Positions 6,784 to 60,403 of a stretch of 64,000 nucleotides of DNA are shown in pieces; the stretch's first letter is position 1; every line of letters begins with the position of its first letter. Source of the stretch: a virus; IMG/VR virus record IMGVR_UViG_3300025030_000004, positions 1-64,000 of that record, one strand, 5' to 3'. Both the position numbers and the translations under genes were made by a program. The notes beneath the pieces are model-generated. The model was given only the letters and a program-made list of their open reading frames with translations, was not told where the DNA came from and ran no database searches.

Positions 6784-7170
6784 TTGATAGTAATGAAAGA
6801 ATTAACTAGAGGTGCAATCTACATAGTGAATTTACCAGATGCTAGCGGGTCTATTCAAACGAAACAACGTCCTGCGGTGCTAATAAGTAATAATTTAGCC
6901 AATCGTTATAGTTCGGTTTTACACATATGTCCCTTAACTTCTGTGACTACAAAATCTAAATTACCCACTCACATTCCAGTCAGTATGAATTGCGGTCTTT
7001 TACGAGATTCTATTGCTCTCTGTGAGCAAACTATGTTAGTTACTAAGGATTGTGTGATAAAAGATAAAATAGGAGTTTGTGATGAGGAAACTATGAAAAG
7101 AATTGATCATGGTTTAATGGTGCAGTTTAATCTTATTCAAACAAATAAAAAGGAAATTGAATACGCATAA
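6784..7170 (+). CDS. mazF: PemK/MazF family endoribonuclease, with no adjacent antitoxin (likely start ATG 6793)
   Basis: RG.IY.V.L....GS.Q...RP.V.ISN...N..S......PLTS...LPTH...GL..DS..LCEQ; catalytic Arg and Thr retained. Confidence 0.9.
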   Translation: MIVMKELTRGAIYIVNLPDASGSIQTKQRPAVLISNNLANRYSSVLHICPLTSVTTKSKLPTHIPVSMNCGLLRDSIALCEQTMLVTKDCVIKDKIGVCDEETMKRIDHGLMVQFNLIQTNKKEIEYA

Positions 7171-7240: not shown

Positions 7241-7855
7241 TTGGTTGAGACGTTAATAGCATCGCTCATCTTCTCTAAACTAAAATTGACCTTACAACTA
7301 GGTAAGCTCAAAATACATAAATCCTCATATAATATCAAACCAATATTTAAAATATGGAGTATATATCCAGTATTGTTTATGTCTATCTTGTACATAATTC
7401 TTCAAGCCATGGTGTTGCGTCAAAATTATAGTTTTCTACCATATCAAAAGATATTTAAAGATGCGTTAATAGGTTCCTATATGTTATTAGGATTAGATGT
7501 TTTATTTAGATATGAGAAATATAAGCCTTTTATAATAGCATGTTGTAGTTCACTATTAGGATTTGGATTAAATGCAATAGTAATGTATTTTAACAACGGT
7601 AAAATGCCGATTTTCCCAACATTTTCATGGTCTACAGGTTATACTCAATATGATATGATAATAAATGCTTCTAAATATGGTGACTTTCATGTTCTTGGTG
7701 ATCATACAACAAAGTTAATATTTTTATCTGATGTGTTCGACGTTTTTACCTCTATATGGTCGCTAGGAGATATATTTATAAGATTATTTGCCTTTATGAT
7801 TATATATTATTCGGTTAAGACAGTAAATCAAAGTATATCTATAAGCCAAAAATAA
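7241..7855 (+). CDS. DUF5317-like polytopic membrane protein (possible aspartic peptidase)
   Basis: G..LN..V...N.G.MP, H......T.L..LSD.F and S.GD motifs; about 5 TM segments. Confidence 0.75.
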   Translation: MVETLIASLIFSKLKLTLQLGKLKIHKSSYNIKPIFKIWSIYPVLFMSILYIILQAMVLRQNYSFLPYQKIFKDALIGSYMLLGLDVLFRYEKYKPFIIACCSSLLGFGLNAIVMYFNNGKMPIFPTFSWSTGYTQYDMIINASKYGDFHVLGDHTTKLIFLSDVFDVFTSIWSLGDIFIRLFAFMIIYYSVKTVNQSISISQK

Positions 7856-7866
7856 TAAATGATGTA

Positions 7867-7895
7867 TTGCATAATCACTTTGCGTATGGTATTAT
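7867..7895 (+). promoter_or_regulatory. SigA promoter for the sensor-agrD transcript
   Basis: TTGCAT-17-TATTAT with extended -10 TGn. Confidence 0.65.
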
Positions 7896-7939: not shown

Positions 7940-8770
7940 ATGCAAAGCGCAATAAATGCCTTATTAAATACGATCTTGGTATCAATTCCGGAAGAAATAT
8001 TCTTAGTGGTTATGACTTTAATCTTTCTAAAAAGGTTTGATATGTTGGACGTAAGAATGTGGAAATATAATTTAAAATGGATTACAATACCTGCGTTCCC
8101 TGTGGCAATAATGATAAATGTGTTCAGATACATAATAATTATACCAAAACCGATTGCCACTATAACTGATGGAATTATCTTTTATACCTTAATGATGATA
8201 ATTATTAAGAGTAATAGTTTTAATTTTATAAGAAAAGATTATCTAAAGATTCTGTTATACTTTACCTTAAGTCTTATTATTTTAGGAGTATTAGAGAATA
8301 GTACATATCCGGTAATCATGTTCTTAATAAACAAACCATTTGAATATTTTAATAATAATATTATATGGAATTTTCTATTAGTATTGCCATCTAGAATATT
8401 TGAATATATTATACTATTTTACTCAATCAGTAAACAAAACAATGTTGTTAGAATTAAACTTTTTGACAGTATAATTTCCAATAAGTTATATTTTAAAGTG
8501 ATGATATTTTTAACAATAATGTTTAATGTTTTATCCATATTTTTAGTAAAATTCATTGTCTATGATAAAATATTAGAAAAATTGTCACTATTAGAAAAGG
8601 TGCTTGTATCAGAAATAACTTTAATATTTCCAGTAGTAGTTGTTTTTATATTTATATTGCTGATTAATGACTTATTAGTCAAACAAAAACTAATGCAACA
8701 AACTTATGAAAACCTTGCTATGCAAGATGACATATTGTTTGATGTAGAAGATGAAAATGAAAGGATGTGA
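7940..8770 (+). CDS. AgrC-sensor-like multi-TM membrane protein lacking a histidine kinase domain; acidic C-terminal tail
   Basis: About 7 hydrophobic segments; lies directly upstream of agrD; no H-box or HATPase motifs; ends ...LMQQTYENLAMQDDILFDVEDENERM. Confidence 0.65.
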   Translation: MQSAINALLNTILVSIPEEIFLVVMTLIFLKRFDMLDVRMWKYNLKWITIPAFPVAIMINVFRYIIIIPKPIATITDGIIFYTLMMIIIKSNSFNFIRKDYLKILLYFTLSLIILGVLENSTYPVIMFLINKPFEYFNNNIIWNFLLVLPSRIFEYIILFYSISKQNNVVRIKLFDSIISNKLYFKVMIFLTIMFNVLSIFLVKFIVYDKILEKLSLLEKVLVSEITLIFPVVVVFIFILLINDLLVKQKLMQQTYENLAMQDDILFDVEDENERM

Positions 8771-8776
8771 ATATAA

Positions 8777-8893
8777 ATGAAAAAATATACTATTCTCGCT
8801 AGTATAGTTGTTTTAGCAGCTACCGCATTTGCAAATGTTTTTGCTTCATGGTTCTTTGCTCATCAACCAAAAACTCCAAATTGTCTAAAATAG
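8777..8893 (+). CDS. agrD: AgrD-type cyclic lactone autoinducer propeptide, 38 aa (not in ORF track)
   Basis: MKKYTILASIVVLAATAFANVFASWFFAHQPKTPNCLK: hydrophobic leader, S-WFFA ring, HQPKxP tail typical of clostridial AgrD; RBS AAAGGA; AgrB nearby. Confidence 0.9.
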   Translation: MKKYTILASIVVLAATAFANVFASWFFAHQPKTPNCLK

Positions 8894-8902
8894 TACATAC
8901 CC

Positions 8903-8967: not shown

Positions 8968-8996
8968 TTGACATAATTTCTCCTTTAGGATAATAT
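8968..8996 (+). promoter_or_regulatory. SigA promoter for HTH-mazF/agrB
   Basis: TTGACA-17-TAATAT. Confidence 0.55.
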
Positions 8997-9057
8997 GTAT
9001 ATATTAAATCAAATAAAAATTATATATGTATTATTAGGAGAAGAGGAGAGATGTATT

Positions 9058-9834
9058 ATGTTCAACACACCAATTAAAAAAACAATTACTGAGGAAAATG
9101 CCAAAAAAGATTTTAAGAAACTAGCTAATTATGTTTTGCGAGCAAAGGGAAACAGAACTATAAACGGATTTGCAGCCGATCTAAGAACCAATGCAGCCTA
9201 CCTTGCAGATATTATTAACGTTAGAATTAATTCTTATCCAACCATTCCCTTTTTAAAACTTATTGCAGATAATTCTGATAATCGAGTGTCACTTAAAGAA
9301 CTTACATTGGCTTGTGGGTACTCAAATTACGCTAACAATGATATGGAACAAATAAAAAATATCTATGTTAGAAGAGGTTGGTTTGCATACGCAAACTTTG
9401 GGGACAGAGCAATGGATAGCGAAATAGCTGGTCATAGATTAGTGCTAATTATCCAAAACGATACAGGAAATAAATTCAGTTCAAATACTATGGTTATTCC
9501 CATTACTTCTCGCAAAAAGAAGAATATGCCGACTCATGTTATAGTTGGAAGTGATTGTGGATTACAATTTGATTCTACAATTTCTTGTGAATTAACTAGT
9601 ACGATTTCTAAAAGAAGACTCGTACAGAATGGAATAGTGCAAAAAGTGGCAGAATGCCCTTCGTACATCATGAAACTGGTTGAGGTTGCATTGCTTAAAG
9701 CACAGGGAGTTATTGATCTAAGAATGGATGAGCAAGAGGCAATTGATTCACTAATTAATATGAATACAACAAAAACATTTCAGTATGAAAATAATTATTC
9801 GCACCATGTAACGTCACAAATGGCTTATGCATGA
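9058..9834 (+). CDS. Xre-like HTH domain fused to a PemK/MazF RNase domain
   Basis: N-term L.RAKGNRTINGFAADL...AAYL..I.N....PT...L..IA (HTH); C-term VRRG....ANFG....SE..G.R.VLIIQND.GN.FS..T.V.PITS...MPTH (MazF); RBS GAGGAG before ATG 9058. Confidence 0.85.
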   Translation: MFNTPIKKTITEENAKKDFKKLANYVLRAKGNRTINGFAADLRTNAAYLADIINVRINSYPTIPFLKLIADNSDNRVSLKELTLACGYSNYANNDMEQIKNIYVRRGWFAYANFGDRAMDSEIAGHRLVLIIQNDTGNKFSSNTMVIPITSRKKKNMPTHVIVGSDCGLQFDSTISCELTSTISKRRLVQNGIVQKVAECPSYIMKLVEVALLKAQGVIDLRMDEQEAIDSLINMNTTKTFQYENNYSHHVTSQMAYA

Positions 9835-9861: not shown

Positions 9862-10506
9862 ATGATTTCAATTCAAAGTTTATCTAATTCTAGTGCTAAA
9901 TGGTTAGCATCAAAAGTACCTAATGATAAATACCCAACAACAGAAGATCAAATAGAAGTCTTTGAATATGGGTTTATGGTTATTATAGGAGCATTGGTCA
10001 AAGGGTTCTTATTAGTCTCAACGGCGTCCATTCTGGGGGTTCTAGTTGCTACTATGATCGTTACATTAGCTTTCTCTAGTTTAAGAATTATCGCTGGCGG
10101 CTATCATATGCAGACATATTCAAGATGTGTAATGATAAGTGTTGCAATGTTCCTTGGGGGTGCATTAATAGCTCAACACACATTTCAATATTGGTCGCAA
10201 GTGAACATACTTAGTCTTTTAGCATCTTCTGCTTTTATCGCGTTGTATATAATTATAAGATATGTTCCTCGCGACACACCAAATAAACCAATCGTAGAAG
10301 CATTAGAAATATCAAAATTTAAAAGATGGTCGCTCATATACTTAATCACATGGTCTACCCTAATGACCATCTTTATACTACTTAACTTAAAATTAATTGT
10401 CATTTCAAGTTGTTTTGGGTTGTTATTGGAGCTTTTTAGTGTGAGTAAGGTCGGTTATTCTGTCTACTACAAGATAGATTCATTAACTAATTCTTCTACC
10501 AATTAA
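9862..10506 (+). CDS. agrB: Accessory gene regulator B (AIP-cyclising membrane peptidase)
   Basis: E...YG, LR..AGGYH......C (catalytic R/H/C) and P.D.PNKPI motifs; multiple TMs. Confidence 0.95.
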   Translation: MISIQSLSNSSAKWLASKVPNDKYPTTEDQIEVFEYGFMVIIGALVKGFLLVSTASILGVLVATMIVTLAFSSLRIIAGGYHMQTYSRCVMISVAMFLGGALIAQHTFQYWSQVNILSLLASSAFIALYIIIRYVPRDTPNKPIVEALEISKFKRWSLIYLITWSTLMTIFILLNLKLIVISSCFGLLLELFSVSKVGYSVYYKIDSLTNSSTN

Positions 10507-10588: not shown

Positions 10589-10650
10589 GATGCTTGATAA
10601 TACATAGCAATTATTTATATATTGCTAATGTGTCAAAGGAGGCAACAAAC

Positions 10651-11997
10651 ATGAAACAAGAACGCCAAAAACTTGAAGACAACTTAAATCTTATTCTTCA
10701 AGATTATAGTAATGACAAAAAAGTAATCGAGGCTGTAACAATTGGTTTGGGAGTAAAAGGTATCCCCATAGGTAAAGTAAGTGGTTTATTTTCAGGATCA
10801 ATTGATTTGTCTTATATCTCAGAAATTGAATTATGCTTATTTACTAAGTATTTTTATGATCAAATACATGAGTTCAAAATAAATCCTGAGACCTATTTCA
10901 ATGAAGTTGAATTATCTGTTGCCGAACAATACCGCTATAATGAAAAAGAAAAAACTAGAGTAATGTTATTGCATAATGTAGATCAGGTAGAAGAAGATTT
11001 GTATCTTTGTTCAAGAGAAACTTATCAAAACGTTGAAAAATTCTTTTCAAATGGACTATGGACATATAATCCTAATACACAAAGGCAACCACTTAAACGT
11101 AAAATTGGAGATAGAATTATTGAAGTCATTAATATTGATAAAGGCAAAATCAAAGAAATTAAAACAGAAATGATAAAAGGAACGTTTAATACTAATGCAA
11201 TTATGTTAAACGTTCGAAGAATAACTGGTTCTGAGAATATTCATTACAATGCTAAAAATAGAACTCTTTTAGTAGAAATTGACGAAACTACTTTTATCGA
11301 CCTGATTGATGGAATGCATAGGGTTGGAGGTATGTTGAAGGCTATTGAGGAAAAACCAGAAATAAATAGAGTTACTTCTATTTACATTCATCACAAAACG
11401 GAAGAACGCGCACTTGCTGTAATTCGACAGGAATCGAAGAGTACACCAATCTCAGATGAATGGATTGAACTTAAAAATACAGCGAATGTTAACATGGAGG
11501 TAGCCAAAGGTATAAATACTCGTCAACGTAAGAATGAAATGTTTAATAAAATTGGATTAGATAATTTAGAACTAAGAAGAGAAAATAAATTTGTAACTTT
11601 CGAAACTTTATCTAAAACCGTTGAATATGTTTATGATTTAAAAGAGGAACCGTTTATTAAAGCCGAAGAAGTTGAGGATCATTTAATTGATTTATTCAAT
11701 ATTGTTATTGGCATTAATCATAGTATGTTTAATGAATTTCTTACTTCAACAAGAGAATCATTTCATATTGCAGATAATAATATGTTCATCGGTTATGTTG
11801 TTTTAGGTGAAGAACTAAAGAAAAAATATGAATATGAATGGAAATCAGAATTTAAAAAAATATTGAAAACTATAGACTTTAGTAAATCAAATCCTGTTTG
11901 GAAGAAAATTGGCATTGAAAACAACCTCAACCTTTCGACAATTAAAAAAATTGCTGAGTATTTTAGGAGTATAGTTAATCAGGAAGGTGTGGCATAA
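10651..11997 (+). CDS. SPbeta YopQ/SroE-like protein with a DGQHR (DndB/ParB-like) domain
   Basis: YNPNTQR and IDGMHR motifs; about 450 aa; directly upstream of the YopR-like gene; RBS AAGGAGG before ATG 10651. Confidence 0.7.
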   Translation: MKQERQKLEDNLNLILQDYSNDKKVIEAVTIGLGVKGIPIGKVSGLFSGSIDLSYISEIELCLFTKYFYDQIHEFKINPETYFNEVELSVAEQYRYNEKEKTRVMLLHNVDQVEEDLYLCSRETYQNVEKFFSNGLWTYNPNTQRQPLKRKIGDRIIEVINIDKGKIKEIKTEMIKGTFNTNAIMLNVRRITGSENIHYNAKNRTLLVEIDETTFIDLIDGMHRVGGMLKAIEEKPEINRVTSIYIHHKTEERALAVIRQESKSTPISDEWIELKNTANVNMEVAKGINTRQRKNEMFNKIGLDNLELRRENKFVTFETLSKTVEYVYDLKEEPFIKAEEVEDHLIDLFNIVIGINHSMFNEFLTSTRESFHIADNNMFIGYVVLGEELKKKYEYEWKSEFKKILKTIDFSKSNPVWKKIGIENNLNLSTIKKIAEYFRSIVNQEGVA

Positions 11998-11998
11998 A

Positions 11999-12979
11999 AT
12001 GTCTTATAATTTTAAATTATATAATCCGGACAGGAAAAATCAATTTTTGAATGAAGAGTACCCCAATGAATCAACCCGTAACACTTATGCGTCTTTGCTG
12101 GTGAATATAAGACAATTTGAAGTAGAGAAAGAAAAAGATGTGTGTGATTTTTCTCTTAGTGAAGCTGTCGAATTATTAATTGGATTAAAGAAAAAGACAT
12201 TTGATTCTCTTAATGTAGCTCATACAATTCTGGTTCGCTATGTTGACTGGTGCGTATATGATGCAAAATGTTCAAAAACCTTTATTAACTCATTTAAATT
12301 GATTGATAAAGAAGATTTGAAAAAATACACCCACCAAATTGCTCAACGTCATTCGTATATAACTAGAGATAAACTATTTAATGTTGTTGATCGACTTTAC
12401 AATTATATTGACAAAGCTATTCCATTACTGTTCTTTGAAGGGGCCAAAGGACGTTCTGATGGAGATCATACTTTTGAAGAAATACGCAATTTAAGAGAAA
12501 GAGACCTTGTCCCAGAAATCAATATTATTACTCTGACTAGAGATAATGGGGAGCAACGTTCAATTAAAGTTGATCCAAGAACCATGGAAATTTTGGTTAT
12601 GGCAGCTAGAGAAACAGATTATTTTAAATCAAACGGCGAAGCAAAAGGAAGATTCCCTGTTGCTCCTTTAGCACAGTCAGAGTATATTATTAGAATGATG
12701 GAAAGCGAGCGAAGTGAAGAGACAAAAATTACTGCAAATTCTATAAACGCAAGATTTAAGAGATTTAGACAGTGGACGGGGGTAAGGTTCTTAACTCCTA
12801 CAACCGTCTTCCAGTCAGGAATGTTAGAAAGATGTGAACAAAAAGAAAAAGAATTTGGTAGAGAACTGACAGTAGATGAGTACAAACAATTGTATAGAGA
12901 TGTCAATTTAGACGACAGAAGGTATTCAGCATTAAAGGAAATGTACGAAACCTATAAAAAAAATAAAGCCCTGATGTAA
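11999..12979 (+). CDS. mrpR: MrpR/YopR/SroF-like master repressor (tyrosine-recombinase fold, catalytically degenerate)
   Basis: YN...K.QFL, FE..KEKD..DF and N..DKAI..L.FEG..G....EI.NL; integrase R and HxxR positions replaced (EGAKG, TPTTVFQSG); about 326 aa. Confidence 0.8.
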   Translation: MSYNFKLYNPDRKNQFLNEEYPNESTRNTYASLLVNIRQFEVEKEKDVCDFSLSEAVELLIGLKKKTFDSLNVAHTILVRYVDWCVYDAKCSKTFINSFKLIDKEDLKKYTHQIAQRHSYITRDKLFNVVDRLYNYIDKAIPLLFFEGAKGRSDGDHTFEEIRNLRERDLVPEINIITLTRDNGEQRSIKVDPRTMEILVMAARETDYFKSNGEAKGRFPVAPLAQSEYIIRMMESERSEETKITANSINARFKRFRQWTGVRFLTPTTVFQSGMLERCEQKEKEFGRELTVDEYKQLYRDVNLDDRRYSALKEMYETYKKNKALM

Positions 12980-12991
12980 ATTGGGGCTTTA
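12964..12991 (+). terminator. Hairpin at the end of the repressor gene
   Basis: TAAAGCCC...GGGCTTTA. Confidence 0.55.
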
Positions 12992-13120
12992 GGACTTTAG
13001 GCCTATATACTTTAGGTACATGTACCTATAAACAGAAAATAATAAATATATTCTAAGGGGAATTTGTCGAATAAGCAGTAGGAGTTGTACAATAGGGATT
13101 ATTTACCCGATATGTTTGTC

Positions 13121-16238: not shown

Positions 16239-16898
16239 ATGAAATATTATAGTATACATGAATTCTCAAAGTTGATTTCCAGAACTCCACAAACACTTAG
16301 AAATTGGGATAAGAGTGGCAAACTAACTCCTAGTCACACTGGAGCAAATGGTTACAGATACTATTCTCATCAACAATTAAAAGAAGTTCTAAACATTGAA
16401 GATGATTCAGAAAAACCTAAACTTACAATTGGATATTGTAGAGTTTCTTCTAATAAACAAAAAGATGATCTTGAACGCCAAGTAGATAATATGAAAAAGT
16501 ATTTAGAATCTTTAAACAAACCTTATGAAATTATAATTGACATTGGAAGTGGTATCAACTACAAGAAAAAGGGACTTAGAGAACTTCTAAAGAAAATCAA
16601 CAATAAAGAAGTAGACAAAATAATTATCTTATATAAAGACAGGCTTCTTAGATTTGGTTTTGAATTAATAGAATATATGGCTAATTTAAATGGTTGTGAA
16701 ATTGAAATATTGGATAGTACAGAAAAAACACAACAAGAAGAATTAGTTGAAGATTTAATACAAATTATTACTGTTTTTAGTTGTAGACTTCAAGGAAAAA
16801 GAGCTAATAGAACTAGAAAAATGATTGATGATTTAATTAAGGAAGGAGATGAGGAAATTGATCAAGGGAATCAAAATAATGCTTGTGCCGAACAATAA
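16239..16898 (+). CDS. tnpA: IS607 transposase (MerR-HTH + serine recombinase)
   Basis: TLRNWD..GKL...GYRYY; GYCRVSS..QKDDLERQ; DIGSGIN; YKDRL.RFGF. Confidence 0.95.
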   Translation: MKYYSIHEFSKLISRTPQTLRNWDKSGKLTPSHTGANGYRYYSHQQLKEVLNIEDDSEKPKLTIGYCRVSSNKQKDDLERQVDNMKKYLESLNKPYEIIIDIGSGINYKKKGLRELLKKINNKEVDKIIILYKDRLLRFGFELIEYMANLNGCEIEILDSTEKTQQEELVEDLIQIITVFSCRLQGKRANRTRKMIDDLIKEGDEEIDQGNQNNACAEQ

Positions 16899-18039
16899 AC
16901 AAAACACATTAATGTTTCAAAATGCTGGAACTGCTAGATGGGCATATAATTGGGCGTTGGGTAGAGAAAAAGAGAATTACGCTAATGGTGGTAAGTTTAT
17001 TTCAGATAATGATTTAAGAAAAGAATTAACTCAACTAAAGAAAACTGATGAATTTGGTTGGTTAAATAATATTTCTAATAATGTACCTAAACAGGCAATT
17101 AAAGACGCTTGTACTGCGTATCAAAGATTCTTCAAGGGGCAAGCAAAATTCCCTCAGTTTAAAACTAGAAAGAAATCTCCTCCTAAATTTTATCAAGATA
17201 ATGTAAAGATTCAATTCACAGGCACACATGTTAAGTTTGAAGGACTTGCTAAAAGTAAAAAGGGAAACAAACAACAATTAAATTGGGTAAGATTAGCTGA
17301 ACACAACAGAATTCCTTTTGGCAAAGATGTCAAGTATATTAATCCTCGAATATCGCATGATAGTTTAAATTGGTTTATTAGTGTTGGAATTGAATGTCCT
17401 AATAACATCGAGACATCATTAAACAAGGGGATCGGAATAGACTTGGGAATTAAAGACTTGGCAATATGCTCAGATGGAAAAACTTATGGGAACATTAATA
17501 AAACCAAAAAGATGAGACGATTAGAAAAACAAAAGAAGAGACTCCAACGTCAAGTTTCTAGAAAATATGAAGATAATCGTGATGGTTCAAAATACATCAA
17601 AACTAAAAATATTATCAAACTAGAACTTAAAATTAAGTCAGTTCAACATAAATTAAACGGAGTTAGAAACAATTACATCCAACAAATGACTACTGAGATA
17701 GTGAAAACCAAACCATCTTTTGTATCGTTGGAGGATTTAAACATTAGTGGAATGATGAAGAACAAACATCTATCTAAAGCGATCCAACAGCAAAGTCTCT
17801 ATGAATTTGGAAGACAGTTAAAATATAAAGGATTATGGAATCATATTGAGATAAGAATTGTAGATAGATGGTATCCAAGCTCTAAGACTTGCCATGAATG
17901 TGGGAAAGTCAATAAGTTATTAACTTTGAGTGATAGAGAATGGATTTGTATTGGATGTGGAAGTGTTTTAGATAGGGATCTTAATGCTTCACTGAATTTA
18001 AGGGATACTGAGAATTATAAGATATTTAAAGTTAGTTGA
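16849..18039 (+). CDS. tnpB: TnpB RNA-guided endonuclease, apparently intact
   Basis: GIDLG, EDL, CHEC/CIGC zinc finger, DRDLNA. Confidence 0.95.
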   Translation: MRKLIKGIKIMLVPNNKQNTLMFQNAGTARWAYNWALGREKENYANGGKFISDNDLRKELTQLKKTDEFGWLNNISNNVPKQAIKDACTAYQRFFKGQAKFPQFKTRKKSPPKFYQDNVKIQFTGTHVKFEGLAKSKKGNKQQLNWVRLAEHNRIPFGKDVKYINPRISHDSLNWFISVGIECPNNIETSLNKGIGIDLGIKDLAICSDGKTYGNINKTKKMRRLEKQKKRLQRQVSRKYEDNRDGSKYIKTKNIIKLELKIKSVQHKLNGVRNNYIQQMTTEIVKTKPSFVSLEDLNISGMMKNKHLSKAIQQQSLYEFGRQLKYKGLWNHIEIRIVDRWYPSSKTCHECGKVNKLLTLSDREWICIGCGSVLDRDLNASLNLRDTENYKIFKVS

Positions 18040-58843: not shown

Positions 58844-60403
58844 CTATTTGTCCTTGATAATATCAAGAAAATACTTATCTAGTCCATTATTCCATTCAAT
58901 ATCTATTCCTTTATCTAAATGTATAGTTATTCTTTTTATGATTTTTCTCAATCCAACGTTATCAATGGTAGCAATATCAAAATCCTTAATAAGTTCTACG
59001 AAAGAATTATACAACTTATATATATTATTAATCTCCTTATTGATGTTTATAATCTTATTTCTAGATAATTCTAATCCTTTTAATTCTTCGTCAACTGATT
59101 TTTTAACCCTATTATATTCCTCCTTAGAAATTTCTCCATCGGCTCTCATCGCAGACAATCCATCTTTACGTTTCTCTAATTTCGTAATTGATTCCTCAAT
59201 TAAAGGAAGTTTCTTTATAAAATCTTTTCCTAAATTTGATTCAATATAAACGTCGTAATATCGTTTCATCACTAAAGGGTTAATATTTTTAACTTTTTCA
59301 ACTTGTTCTTGAATATAATCTAGTATATCTTCTTCCCTAATGTAATGATAGTCGCTACACATGCTTTTATCCCTATGTCTATTACTACATAGATAATAAA
59401 ATAAATCTGGCTTGTCTCTTCTCTGTGCTCTTTTCATAGACGCTTTACAATTTGCACAATAAAAAATATTGGATAGTAAATTCTTGGAACTATATTTCTT
59501 GTTGCTCTTTACTAACAAAGCTCTTGATTCTTTAATCTCATTTGCTCTAATAAAAAGGTCGTCACCAATAATTCTTAAATTTTCAAAATAATGCACTATT
59601 CTATCATCTTCATCAATTGTCTGAATTTTACTTGTAAATATATCTAACATCACAGATTGATAATTGACCTGCTTTCCTGTATAAATTGGATTGCTGATTA
59701 TTTTACCTATCGTTGCTTGTTGCCACATTTTGTTTTTCTTAGATGGGATACCTAATTCATTTAAAGTCAAAGCTATTTTGAATAAAGAATATCCTTGATT
59801 AACATACCAATTAAATATCTTCCGTATAACCTCAGATTCGCCTGTATTGATTTGTAGGAATGCTTTAACCCTATCATAACCGTAGGCTGGTTGACTCGTC
59901 CAGTGACCCTCTTTTTGTGCTTGTCTCATACCTACCTGAATACCTTTAGATAATGCTATTAATTCATTCTGAGCAAGAGAACCTAAAATATTAAGCATAA
60001 CCTCATCGCCATAAGTTTTAGCATAATCTCCGGTGTTTAAATTCTCTTTAAGAAAAAATACTCCTATATCTTTTTTTCTTAATTCTCTGACTGTCTCTTG
60101 GAGCGTTACAATATCACGACTGTAACGAGCTATATTACTCGTCAATATCTGAACAAAAAATCCTTTATTTGAATCAGTCATCATTTTATTAAATTCATCA
60201 CGTTTTTTTGTACTTTTACCACTAATACCCCTATCCGCATAAACCCCATCTTTCCCACATTCTTTGACTAAATAATATCCTAATTCTTCAGCCCTTTCTT
60301 TAAATATTTTTTGTTGGTTATCAAATGAATTCTTTTGATCATCAGAACGGGTTGAGACGCGAGCATAGGCCACCGCAGGTAAAAGAGTTGAATATTTAGA
60401 CAT
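58844..60403 (-). CDS. Large serine recombinase/integrase
   Basis: AYARVST..DQ..S...Q, D.G.SG....R..F, RYSR, YGY recombinase domain, C..C/C..C zinc ribbon and coiled coil. Confidence 0.95.
   Translation of the reverse strand: MSKYSTLLPAVAYARVSTRSDDQKNSFDNQQKIFKERAEELGYYLVKECGKDGVYADRGISGKSTKKRDEFNKMMTDSNKGFFVQILTSNIARYSRDIVTLQETVRELRKKDIGVFFLKENLNTGDYAKTYGDEVMLNILGSLAQNELIALSKGIQVGMRQAQKEGHWTSQPAYGYDRVKAFLQINTGESEVIRKIFNWYVNQGYSLFKIALTLNELGIPSKKNKMWQQATIGKIISNPIYTGKQVNYQSVMLDIFTSKIQTIDEDDRIVHYFENLRIIGDDLFIRANEIKESRALLVKSNKKYSSKNLLSNIFYCANCKASMKRAQRRDKPDLFYYLCSNRHRDKSMCSDYHYIREEDILDYIQEQVEKVKNINPLVMKRYYDVYIESNLGKDFIKKLPLIEESITKLEKRKDGLSAMRADGEISKEEYNRVKKSVDEELKGLELSRNKIININKEINNIYKLYNSFVELIKDFDIATIDNVGLRKIIKRITIHLDKGIDIEWNNGLDKYFLDIIKDK

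Follow-up and report, generated by a model that had tools for sequence, protein, structure and literature searches.

A predicted HTH–MazF fusion protein encoded between agrD and agrB in the kinase-less Agr-like cassette of a Clostridium-type phage

Introduction

In the cis-fused toxin–antitoxins CapRel SJ46 and EzeT, a toxin and a possible regulatory domain are carried in one chain and no separate antitoxin gene is present, as is the case for the protein described here; to our knowledge, no HTH–MazF architecture is found among them. In phages, MazF has been connected with peptide signalling: the arbitrium system of phi3T modulates host MazE–MazF, with MazF activity favouring lysogeny at high peptide, and phi3T proteins either free or block host MazF (PMC10769878). 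SroF, the repressor of SPbeta, has an integrase-like fold (bioRxiv 10.1101/2025.11.27.690993), and agr-type quorum-sensing genes are carried by the C. difficile phage phiCDHM1 (PMC3901668). Neither an HTH–MazF fusion nor a phage cassette that combines agr genes with MazF was found described in our literature searches.

Such a combination is present in the stretch of 64,000 nucleotides analysed here (hereafter the window; G+C ~30%), which corresponds to bases 1–64000 of a complete virus genome of 166,652 bp with direct terminal repeats. The phage is of the Clostridium type, and its replication genes in the window encode a DNA polymerase III alpha-like protein, an exonuclease V/helicase, DnaB, a ligase and NrdD. 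The window also harbours a transposase (phrog_506) at 16849–18039 and, among its few minus-strand genes, a large serine recombinase/integrase (phrog_95) at 58844–60403. On the coding strands of the whole genome, CCWGG and GGWCC are nearly missing (one to three sites each, against 15–28 expected), which looks like restriction-site avoidance.

Results

The fusion gene and its product

A sequence-only reading of this DNA had placed an HTH–MazF fusion between agrD and agrB, and the reading frame, both domains and both neighbours were recovered in the present analysis (Table 1). Translation starts at ATG 9058, preceded by a ribosome-binding site (AGGAGAAGAGGAGAG) at 9036–9050, and homologues of 256–276 aa begin with the same residues as the protein read from this codon. 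A longer frame from ATG 8995 is unlikely, because the promoter would lie inside it, a strong ribosome-binding site stands before ATG 9058 and the homologues share the latter start. The sigma-70-type promoter, which is common to the fusion gene and agrB, matches the consensus at 10 of 12 positions, and TTGACAT-17-TATAAT is kept in five of the six aligned loci.

Judged from profiles and structural models, the product is a three-part protein, consisting of an Xre/Cro HTH domain, a MazF domain and a conserved C-terminal tail. The domain list of the sequence-only reading was thus right for the HTH and MazF parts and overlooked both the conserved linker between them and the 42-aa C-terminal tail. 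The full-length AlphaFold model (pLDDT 78, pTM 0.53) leaves the arrangement of the domains uncertain, with no confident docking of the N-terminal domain on the MazF domain.

Table 1. Features of the phage cassette, with positions in the window.
Feature	Position	Strand	Details
Stand-alone MazF paralogue	6784–7170	+	PF02452, E 4e-21; likely start ATG 6793
DUF5317 membrane protein	7241–7855	+	PF17248, E 4e-19; syntenic in most loci
Kinase-less multi-pass membrane protein, presumed sensor	7940–8770	+	276 aa; conserved cytoplasmic tail aa 247–276
agrD	8777–8893	+	38 aa; predicted ring SWFFA before HQPKTP; TIGR04223, E 5.9e-8, above cut-off
UACAUA motif	8894–8899	+	directly after agrD stop codon
GC-rich hairpin, UUCG loop	8903–8930	+	between agrD and fusion promoter
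Sigma-70-type promoter of fusion–agrB unit	8968–8996	+	TTGACA 8968, 17 nt, TAATAT 8996
HTH–MazF fusion gene	9058–9834	+	258 aa plus stop; ORF, RBS and start common to 54 full-length homologues
Xre/Cro-type helix-turn-helix domain (predicted)	9091–9327	+	aa 12–90; HTH helices 35–42 and 46–53
Highly conserved linker	9313–9369	+	aa 86–104; Cys86 and Tyr88 invariant in all clades
MazF/PemK endoribonuclease domain (predicted)	9370–9705	+	aa 105–216; Arg127 9436–9438, Thr150 9505–9507; Pfam, PDB profile, Foldseek
Conserved C-terminal tail	9706–9831	+	aa 217–258; helix 225–235, then disordered, ending Q-M/V-A-Y/F-A
agrB	9862–10506	+	PF04647, E 1e-36; 27 nt after fusion gene
DndB-like (YopQ-type) and MrpR/SroF-like repressor genes	10594–12979	+	PF14072, PF22822, PF22823

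The N-terminal domain

Searches of Pfam, NCBIfam and PDB sequences with the N-terminal domain returned no significant match; among the Pfam HTH models, including HTH_3 (PF01381), none matched the fusion protein or the N-terminal domains of 24 family members at E < 0.01, and PHROGs returned only a weak match to ‘transcriptional regulator'. Modelled alone with AF2, the domain forms a five-helix bundle (pLDDT 80, pTM 0.70). Foldseek matches of this model were DdrO, SinR, ClgR, CapH, C.Esp1396I and lambda cI, together with the HTH-like domains of MPnS and HppE. In an exhaustive VIA search, the best match was the XRE regulator 2ofy (Z 9.8; rmsd 2.5 A over 76 of 80 residues), followed by 49 rows of the same lambda-repressor-like fold. 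Further structural matches were C.AhdI, ImmR and the Xre-type antitoxins HigA and HipB.

When 1.84 billion representatives were searched with a profile of the domain, 426 proteins were retrieved, and among the best 60 of these relatives outside the family, 30 carried HTH_3, 10 HTH_19, 4 Peptidase_S24 and 6 PemK_toxin. Because of these fold matches and HTH_3-bearing profile relatives, we conclude that the domain is a true but divergent Xre/Cro HTH of the phage-repressor kind, with putative DNA binding. The proposal of the sequence-only reading that the N-terminus is an Xre-like HTH therefore stood, by fold as well as by profile homology, and its contrary, an N-terminal region that is not an HTH, was not what the domain analysis returned. 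The domain is basic (pI ~9), and no second copy of it was found in the complete phage genome.

Searches of the cassette promoters identified no operator. The only 9-mer common to two cassette promoters, TTATCCTAA, present at 7895 on the plus strand and at 8985 on the minus strand, was considered as an operator and rejected, as its occurrence is not significant (five times in the window against two expected) and relatives do not conserve it.

The MazF domain

The second domain matches Pfam PemK_toxin (PF02452) at aa 106–213 (E 2.5e-18; 66.7 bits against a cut-off of 23.1), and a PDB profile search with the fusion family returned B. anthracis MoxT, B. cereus and B. subtilis EndoA and S. aureus MazF (E ~1e-25 to 1e-23). 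By Foldseek, the domain superimposes on 1NE8, 4MDX and 4HKE with a target TM of 0.87–0.89 and an rmsd of 1.5–1.8 A, and it has the SH3-like barrel fold of MazF. A fold search of the ESM Atlas returned plain MazF clusters only.

When the protein is aligned to B. subtilis MazF with HMMER, Arg127 falls on catalytic R25 and Thr150 on T48, and further conserved MazF positions are matched by the S-E loop, N134, G137-N138, the P-T-H motif, E178 and K185-R187. R127, N134, G137, N138, E178 and R187 are invariant even when nine distant HTH–MazF clusters (29–39% identity) are included, with either Thr or Ser at position 150 throughout the clades. As had been read from the sequence, both catalytic residues are therefore kept, the Arg being invariant and the Thr being replaced only by Ser across clades. 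Two substitutions given in the same reading, ‘RL' for the conserved ‘RP' and ‘EL' for ‘EQ', are correct for the protein in the window and do not hold as traits of the family, in which L, P, M, V or I occurs at position 128 and L, Q or M at position 179. The MazF domain, which is of the Bacillota NdoA/EndoA type, is apparently intact, and RNase activity is predicted for it.

Linker, C-terminal tail and stand-alone MazF

The linker (consensus ACGYSNY.NNDMEQIKNI) is among the best-conserved stretches of the family and is predicted to be flexible, with a pLDDT of ~50 at residues 91–100. The end of the C-terminal tail has a counterpart in the stand-alone MazF paralogues, which likewise finish with an N-rich stretch followed by V/I/Y-A/E-Y/S-A (in the window and in related loci at L001 3871–4242, L002 2856–3260 and L005 3826–4209). 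That the fusion protein and these paralogues end alike suggests that they have a partner in common or are turned over in the same way. The motif was compared with an ssrA-like degron, and the likeness to the host-type tmRNA tag ANDNLALAA is loose; as the chain of some family members runs one residue further, a degron bound strictly to the C-terminus is unlikely. No antitoxin-like gene was found before the stand-alone MazF paralogues. The complete genome contains two MazF genes only, the fusion gene and the stand-alone one. Neither MazE/AbrB (PF04014) nor RHH_1 (PF01402) has a match in it, so that it appears to encode no antitoxin.

Family and gene order

A database search with the fusion protein retrieved 54 clusters at E up to 0.001, mostly full-length and at 48–85% identity; with the nine more distant HTH–MazF clusters, which came from the representative library, the family comprises over 60 clusters. 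Its members sit on phage-like contigs of 24–230 kb, and one is on a contig of a Clostridium sp. metagenome-assembled genome (MAG) with the same cassette. No member was found outside an agr cassette. Among isolate phages, there was no DNA match and no protein match covering more than 59% of the query.

Gene order was examined in 26 loci, with fusions down to ~30% identity, by HMMs built for the cassette genes. In all 26, a membrane protein of ~270 aa, an AgrD-like ORF and the fusion gene are adjacent, on the same strand and in the same order. AgrB follows the fusion gene in most loci, the stand-alone MazF and DUF5317 genes precede in most, and DndB-like and MrpR-like genes are found downstream wherever the contig is long enough. 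Some related cassettes also include a DUF7487 protein with a weakly restriction-endonuclease-like C-terminus (L024 866–2410 and L010 2386–3468).

Signalling genes of the cassette

At least 18 variants of the AgrD ring were found across the loci (SWFFA, CFFWF, SWLFS, SAFWT, CWVWI, CRGFF, SHSML and others), a variety that resembles pherotype diversification. The presumed sensor forms a family of 42 clusters, and a PDB profile search with this family returned nothing. Its membrane part (40–55% identity) diverges faster than the fusion protein (55–85%), and its best-conserved part is the cytoplasmic tail, QIQQTYENL..QDDIM.DVED, whose 25–30 residues are nearly invariant. A complex prediction for two fusion chains plus the sensor tail (aa 240–276) scored 0.00, which speaks neither for nor against an interaction. 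In distant clades, the sensor has a shorter tail composed of a Y plus acidic residues. A second kinase-less sensor paralogue is located after agrB in many related cassettes (L002 7622–8473, L008 1271–2092, L028, L030, L032 and L034–L037), unlike in the phage of the window, which has a single sensor gene.

Downstream of agrB, the gene at 11987–12979 matches the MrpR Pfam models. Just beyond it lies a perfect 14-bp palindrome (AGGTACATGTACCT; 13014–13027), flanked by TTTAGG repeats at 12990–13011.

Searches of the complete genome for HATPase_c, Response_reg (PF00072) and LytTR (PF04397) returned no match. The cassette thus appears to combine peptide synthesis with a candidate receptor and no classical transducer, the fusion protein being its sole DNA-binding-type protein. 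As the genome encodes neither AgrA/LytTR nor a receiver or a kinase, an unconventional output would be needed, for which the fusion protein is the best candidate.

A UACAUA motif and a conserved hairpin after agrD

Between agrD and the fusion promoter, a GC-rich hairpin is predicted in 19 of 19 distinct loci, often with a UUCG loop, and compensatory changes were found at six of its ten consensus pairs. The hairpin has no U-tract behind it, and the region yielded no terminator-like site. UACAUA, immediately 5′ of the stem, is present 0–13 nt after the agrD stop in 14 of the 19 loci, whereas its density on the sense strand of these loci predicts 3% within 25 nt of the agrD stop (binomial P ~1e-17, with loci treated as unrelated; the motif occurs in at least six different flanking contexts). 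The combination of UACAUA and a covarying hairpin after agrD is a new observation.

B. subtilis MazF cuts at U^ACAUA, and the MazF enzymes of L. monocytogenes and S. aureus reportedly have the same site (bioRxiv 10.64898/2026.08.06.743204). A cut at the motif would detach the 3′ hairpin from the sensor–agrD message. The fusion protein, the stand-alone MazF and host MazF are all candidates for the cutting enzyme; since the fusion protein has L/T/S at the positions of Q79/I80/R81 in B. subtilis MazF, the site could serve the host enzyme. One host-type Clostridium MAG (L042), which includes a cassette-bearing contig, also has a canonical alr-mazE-mazF locus. Host MazE shows no likeness to the fusion protein or to the sensor tail (hhalign probability < 1%).

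Across the whole phage, neither avoidance of MazF sites nor a preference for UACAUA was detected (TACAT, 207 against 173 expected; TACATA, 0.73 per kb, with 0.69 predicted from composition). When UACAUA counts per gene family were compared with synonymous-codon shuffles, related sequences being counted as independent, 32 sites were observed in sensor genes (16.5 expected), 20 in DUF5317 genes (11 expected) and 15 in AgrB genes (9.5 expected). DndB-like genes contained a single site (4.5 expected; P 0.025) and MrpR-like genes none (1.6 expected; not significant). An apparent ~18-fold depletion in the repressor genes by raw density was rejected, as it is mostly explained by amino-acid sequence and shrinks under the shuffles.

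Discussion

Our preferred reading, to which we assign about an even chance of being correct, is that the fusion protein serves as the cytoplasmic regulator and RNase output of a kinase-less Agr-like phage signal that feeds a lysis–lysogeny switch. The MazF fold, which sits where CI-like repressors carry their dimerisation domain, would dimerise the protein, bringing two HTH domains together on an operator of the cassette, where they would set transcription of the fusion–agrB unit. An active RNase groove, formed by the same dimer, would cleave sites of the UACAUA type, among them the one just 5′ of the hairpin that would end the sensor–agrD message. The peptide-bound state of the sensor may be relayed via its conserved cytoplasmic tail or via protein turnover, so that the peptide level would alter cassette expression and phage transcripts and, in consequence, bias the choice between lysis and lysogeny, in the way that phi3T uses host MazF. 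Of these steps, we infer the binding of DNA, the RNase activity with its specificity, the link to the sensor and the direction in which the protein acts. A more far-reaching version, which we hold tentatively and would expect to fail somewhat more readily than to hold, is that a second form of virus-to-virus communication operates in large Clostridium phages. Here, a cyclic AgrD peptide and a kinase-less, putatively AgrC-like sensor would act, free of phosphorylation, on a tail-controlled HTH–MazF chimera that sets lysis or lysogeny via both DNA binding and UACAUA cuts.

Three other readings were weighed. The protein may be a self-contained fused toxin–antitoxin, in which the Xre domain or the tail neutralises MazF in cis and autorepresses the gene, with maintenance, host shut-off or phage exclusion as its function and the agr neighbours incidental. 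The absence of a separate antitoxin gene from the genome, the presence of HigA and HipB among the structural matches of the N-terminal domain, the intact catalytic residues and the gene's own strong promoter are all in keeping with it. However, in all 26 loci, among clades at ~30% identity, the gene keeps its slot between agrD and agrB (or the repressor genes). Mobile toxin–antitoxin modules do not behave in this way, and the fixed synteny thus disfavours this reading. Family members were moreover found only with the agr cassette, the MAG contig included, and the full-length model offers no confident contact through which the N-terminal domain would restrain MazF; we thus consider this reading unlikely.

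A pure transcription factor, in which the MazF fold is a scaffold for dimerisation or partner binding and cuts no RNA, could likewise act as repressor or activator of the cassette. The nearest N-terminal relatives outside the family are HTH_3 repressors, some of them fused to an S24 peptidase, the MazF domain occupies the slot of their oligomerisation domain, and the positions beside the catalytic Arg and in the EQ motif are variable. Yet Arg127, Thr/Ser150, the S/E loop, N134, G137-N138, PTH, E178 and K185-R187 are kept in all clades, and a scaffold needs none of them. As catalytic and RNA-binding residues are thus retained across clades at ~30% identity, their conservation argues against a purely structural MazF domain, and we give this reading quite a low probability. 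Similarly low is the probability of a modulator of host MazEF, whose MazF domain would titrate host MazE or form mixed dimers with host MazF, as an analogue of the phi3T proteins. Such a role would fit the canonical alr-mazE-mazF locus of the host-type MAG, the action of phi3T proteins on MazE and MazF (PMC10769878) and the fact that the MazF domain resembles the host-type MazF (40% identity) more than it does the phage stand-alone MazF (34%). On the other hand, an identity of 40% is low if a cognate antitoxin is to cross-bind, and the HTH domain would be left unexplained.

If the preferred reading of a peptide-controlled regulator and RNase is true, phages outside Bacillus have built a switch from Agr peptide chemistry, a kinase-less receptor and a MazF of their own. 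Three questions would become testable, namely how an AgrC-type receptor signals without phosphotransfer, whether a MazF RNase acts as a regulated signalling output rather than as a toxin, and whether the AgrD ring variants are private phage channels, like the AimP variants. Under the conservative readings too, the fusion of an HTH to MazF in the absence of an antitoxin gene is an architecture so far undescribed in this intensively studied toxin family.

The closest relatives of the second domain are MazF/EndoA (NdoA, YdcE) of B. subtilis, MoxT of B. anthracis and MazF of S. aureus (1NE8, 4MDX, 4HKE and 4MZM), which have the same fold and ~36–38% identity over the domain. Relative to them, the fusion protein keeps the catalytic Arg, the Thr and most RNA-contact positions, yet it differs in its N-terminal HTH, its C-terminal tail and a 6-residue loop insertion, as well as in being phage-encoded in a peptide-signalling cassette, with no MazE gene either upstream or genome-wide. 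With CI/LexA-like and Xre phage repressors (HTH_3 with or without Peptidase_S24), it shares a homologous five-helix N-terminal HTH and a C-terminal domain that is expected to dimerise. In contrast to those repressors, that C-terminal domain has an RNase fold instead of being an S24 autopeptidase or a simple oligomerisation domain, and DNA binding is putative.

Like AgrA, the fusion protein is encoded in an agr-type cluster, is the only soluble DNA-binding-type protein there and, being in one transcription unit with agrB, could feed back on peptide production; unlike AgrA, it has neither a receiver nor a LytTR domain, and there is no kinase to phosphorylate it. The phage cassette as a whole resembles agrBDCA in containing both AgrB and AgrD, whereas the gene order differs and no AgrC histidine kinase is encoded (no HATPase_c in the genome). 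Arbitrium (AimR-AimP-AimX of SPbeta/phi3T) is comparable by position upstream of DndB/MrpR genes only: in both cases, a peptide cassette lies directly upstream of DndB/MrpR(SroF)-type repressor genes in a large temperate phage, and MazF is part of the decision logic, as proposed here for the phage cassette. The signals are different, that of the cassette being a predicted AgrD/AgrB cyclic peptide perceived at the membrane and that of arbitrium a linear peptide with a cytoplasmic TPR receptor. Finally, arbitrium phages use the MazF of their host, whereas the MazF domains of the cassette are encoded by the phage, one of them fused to an HTH.
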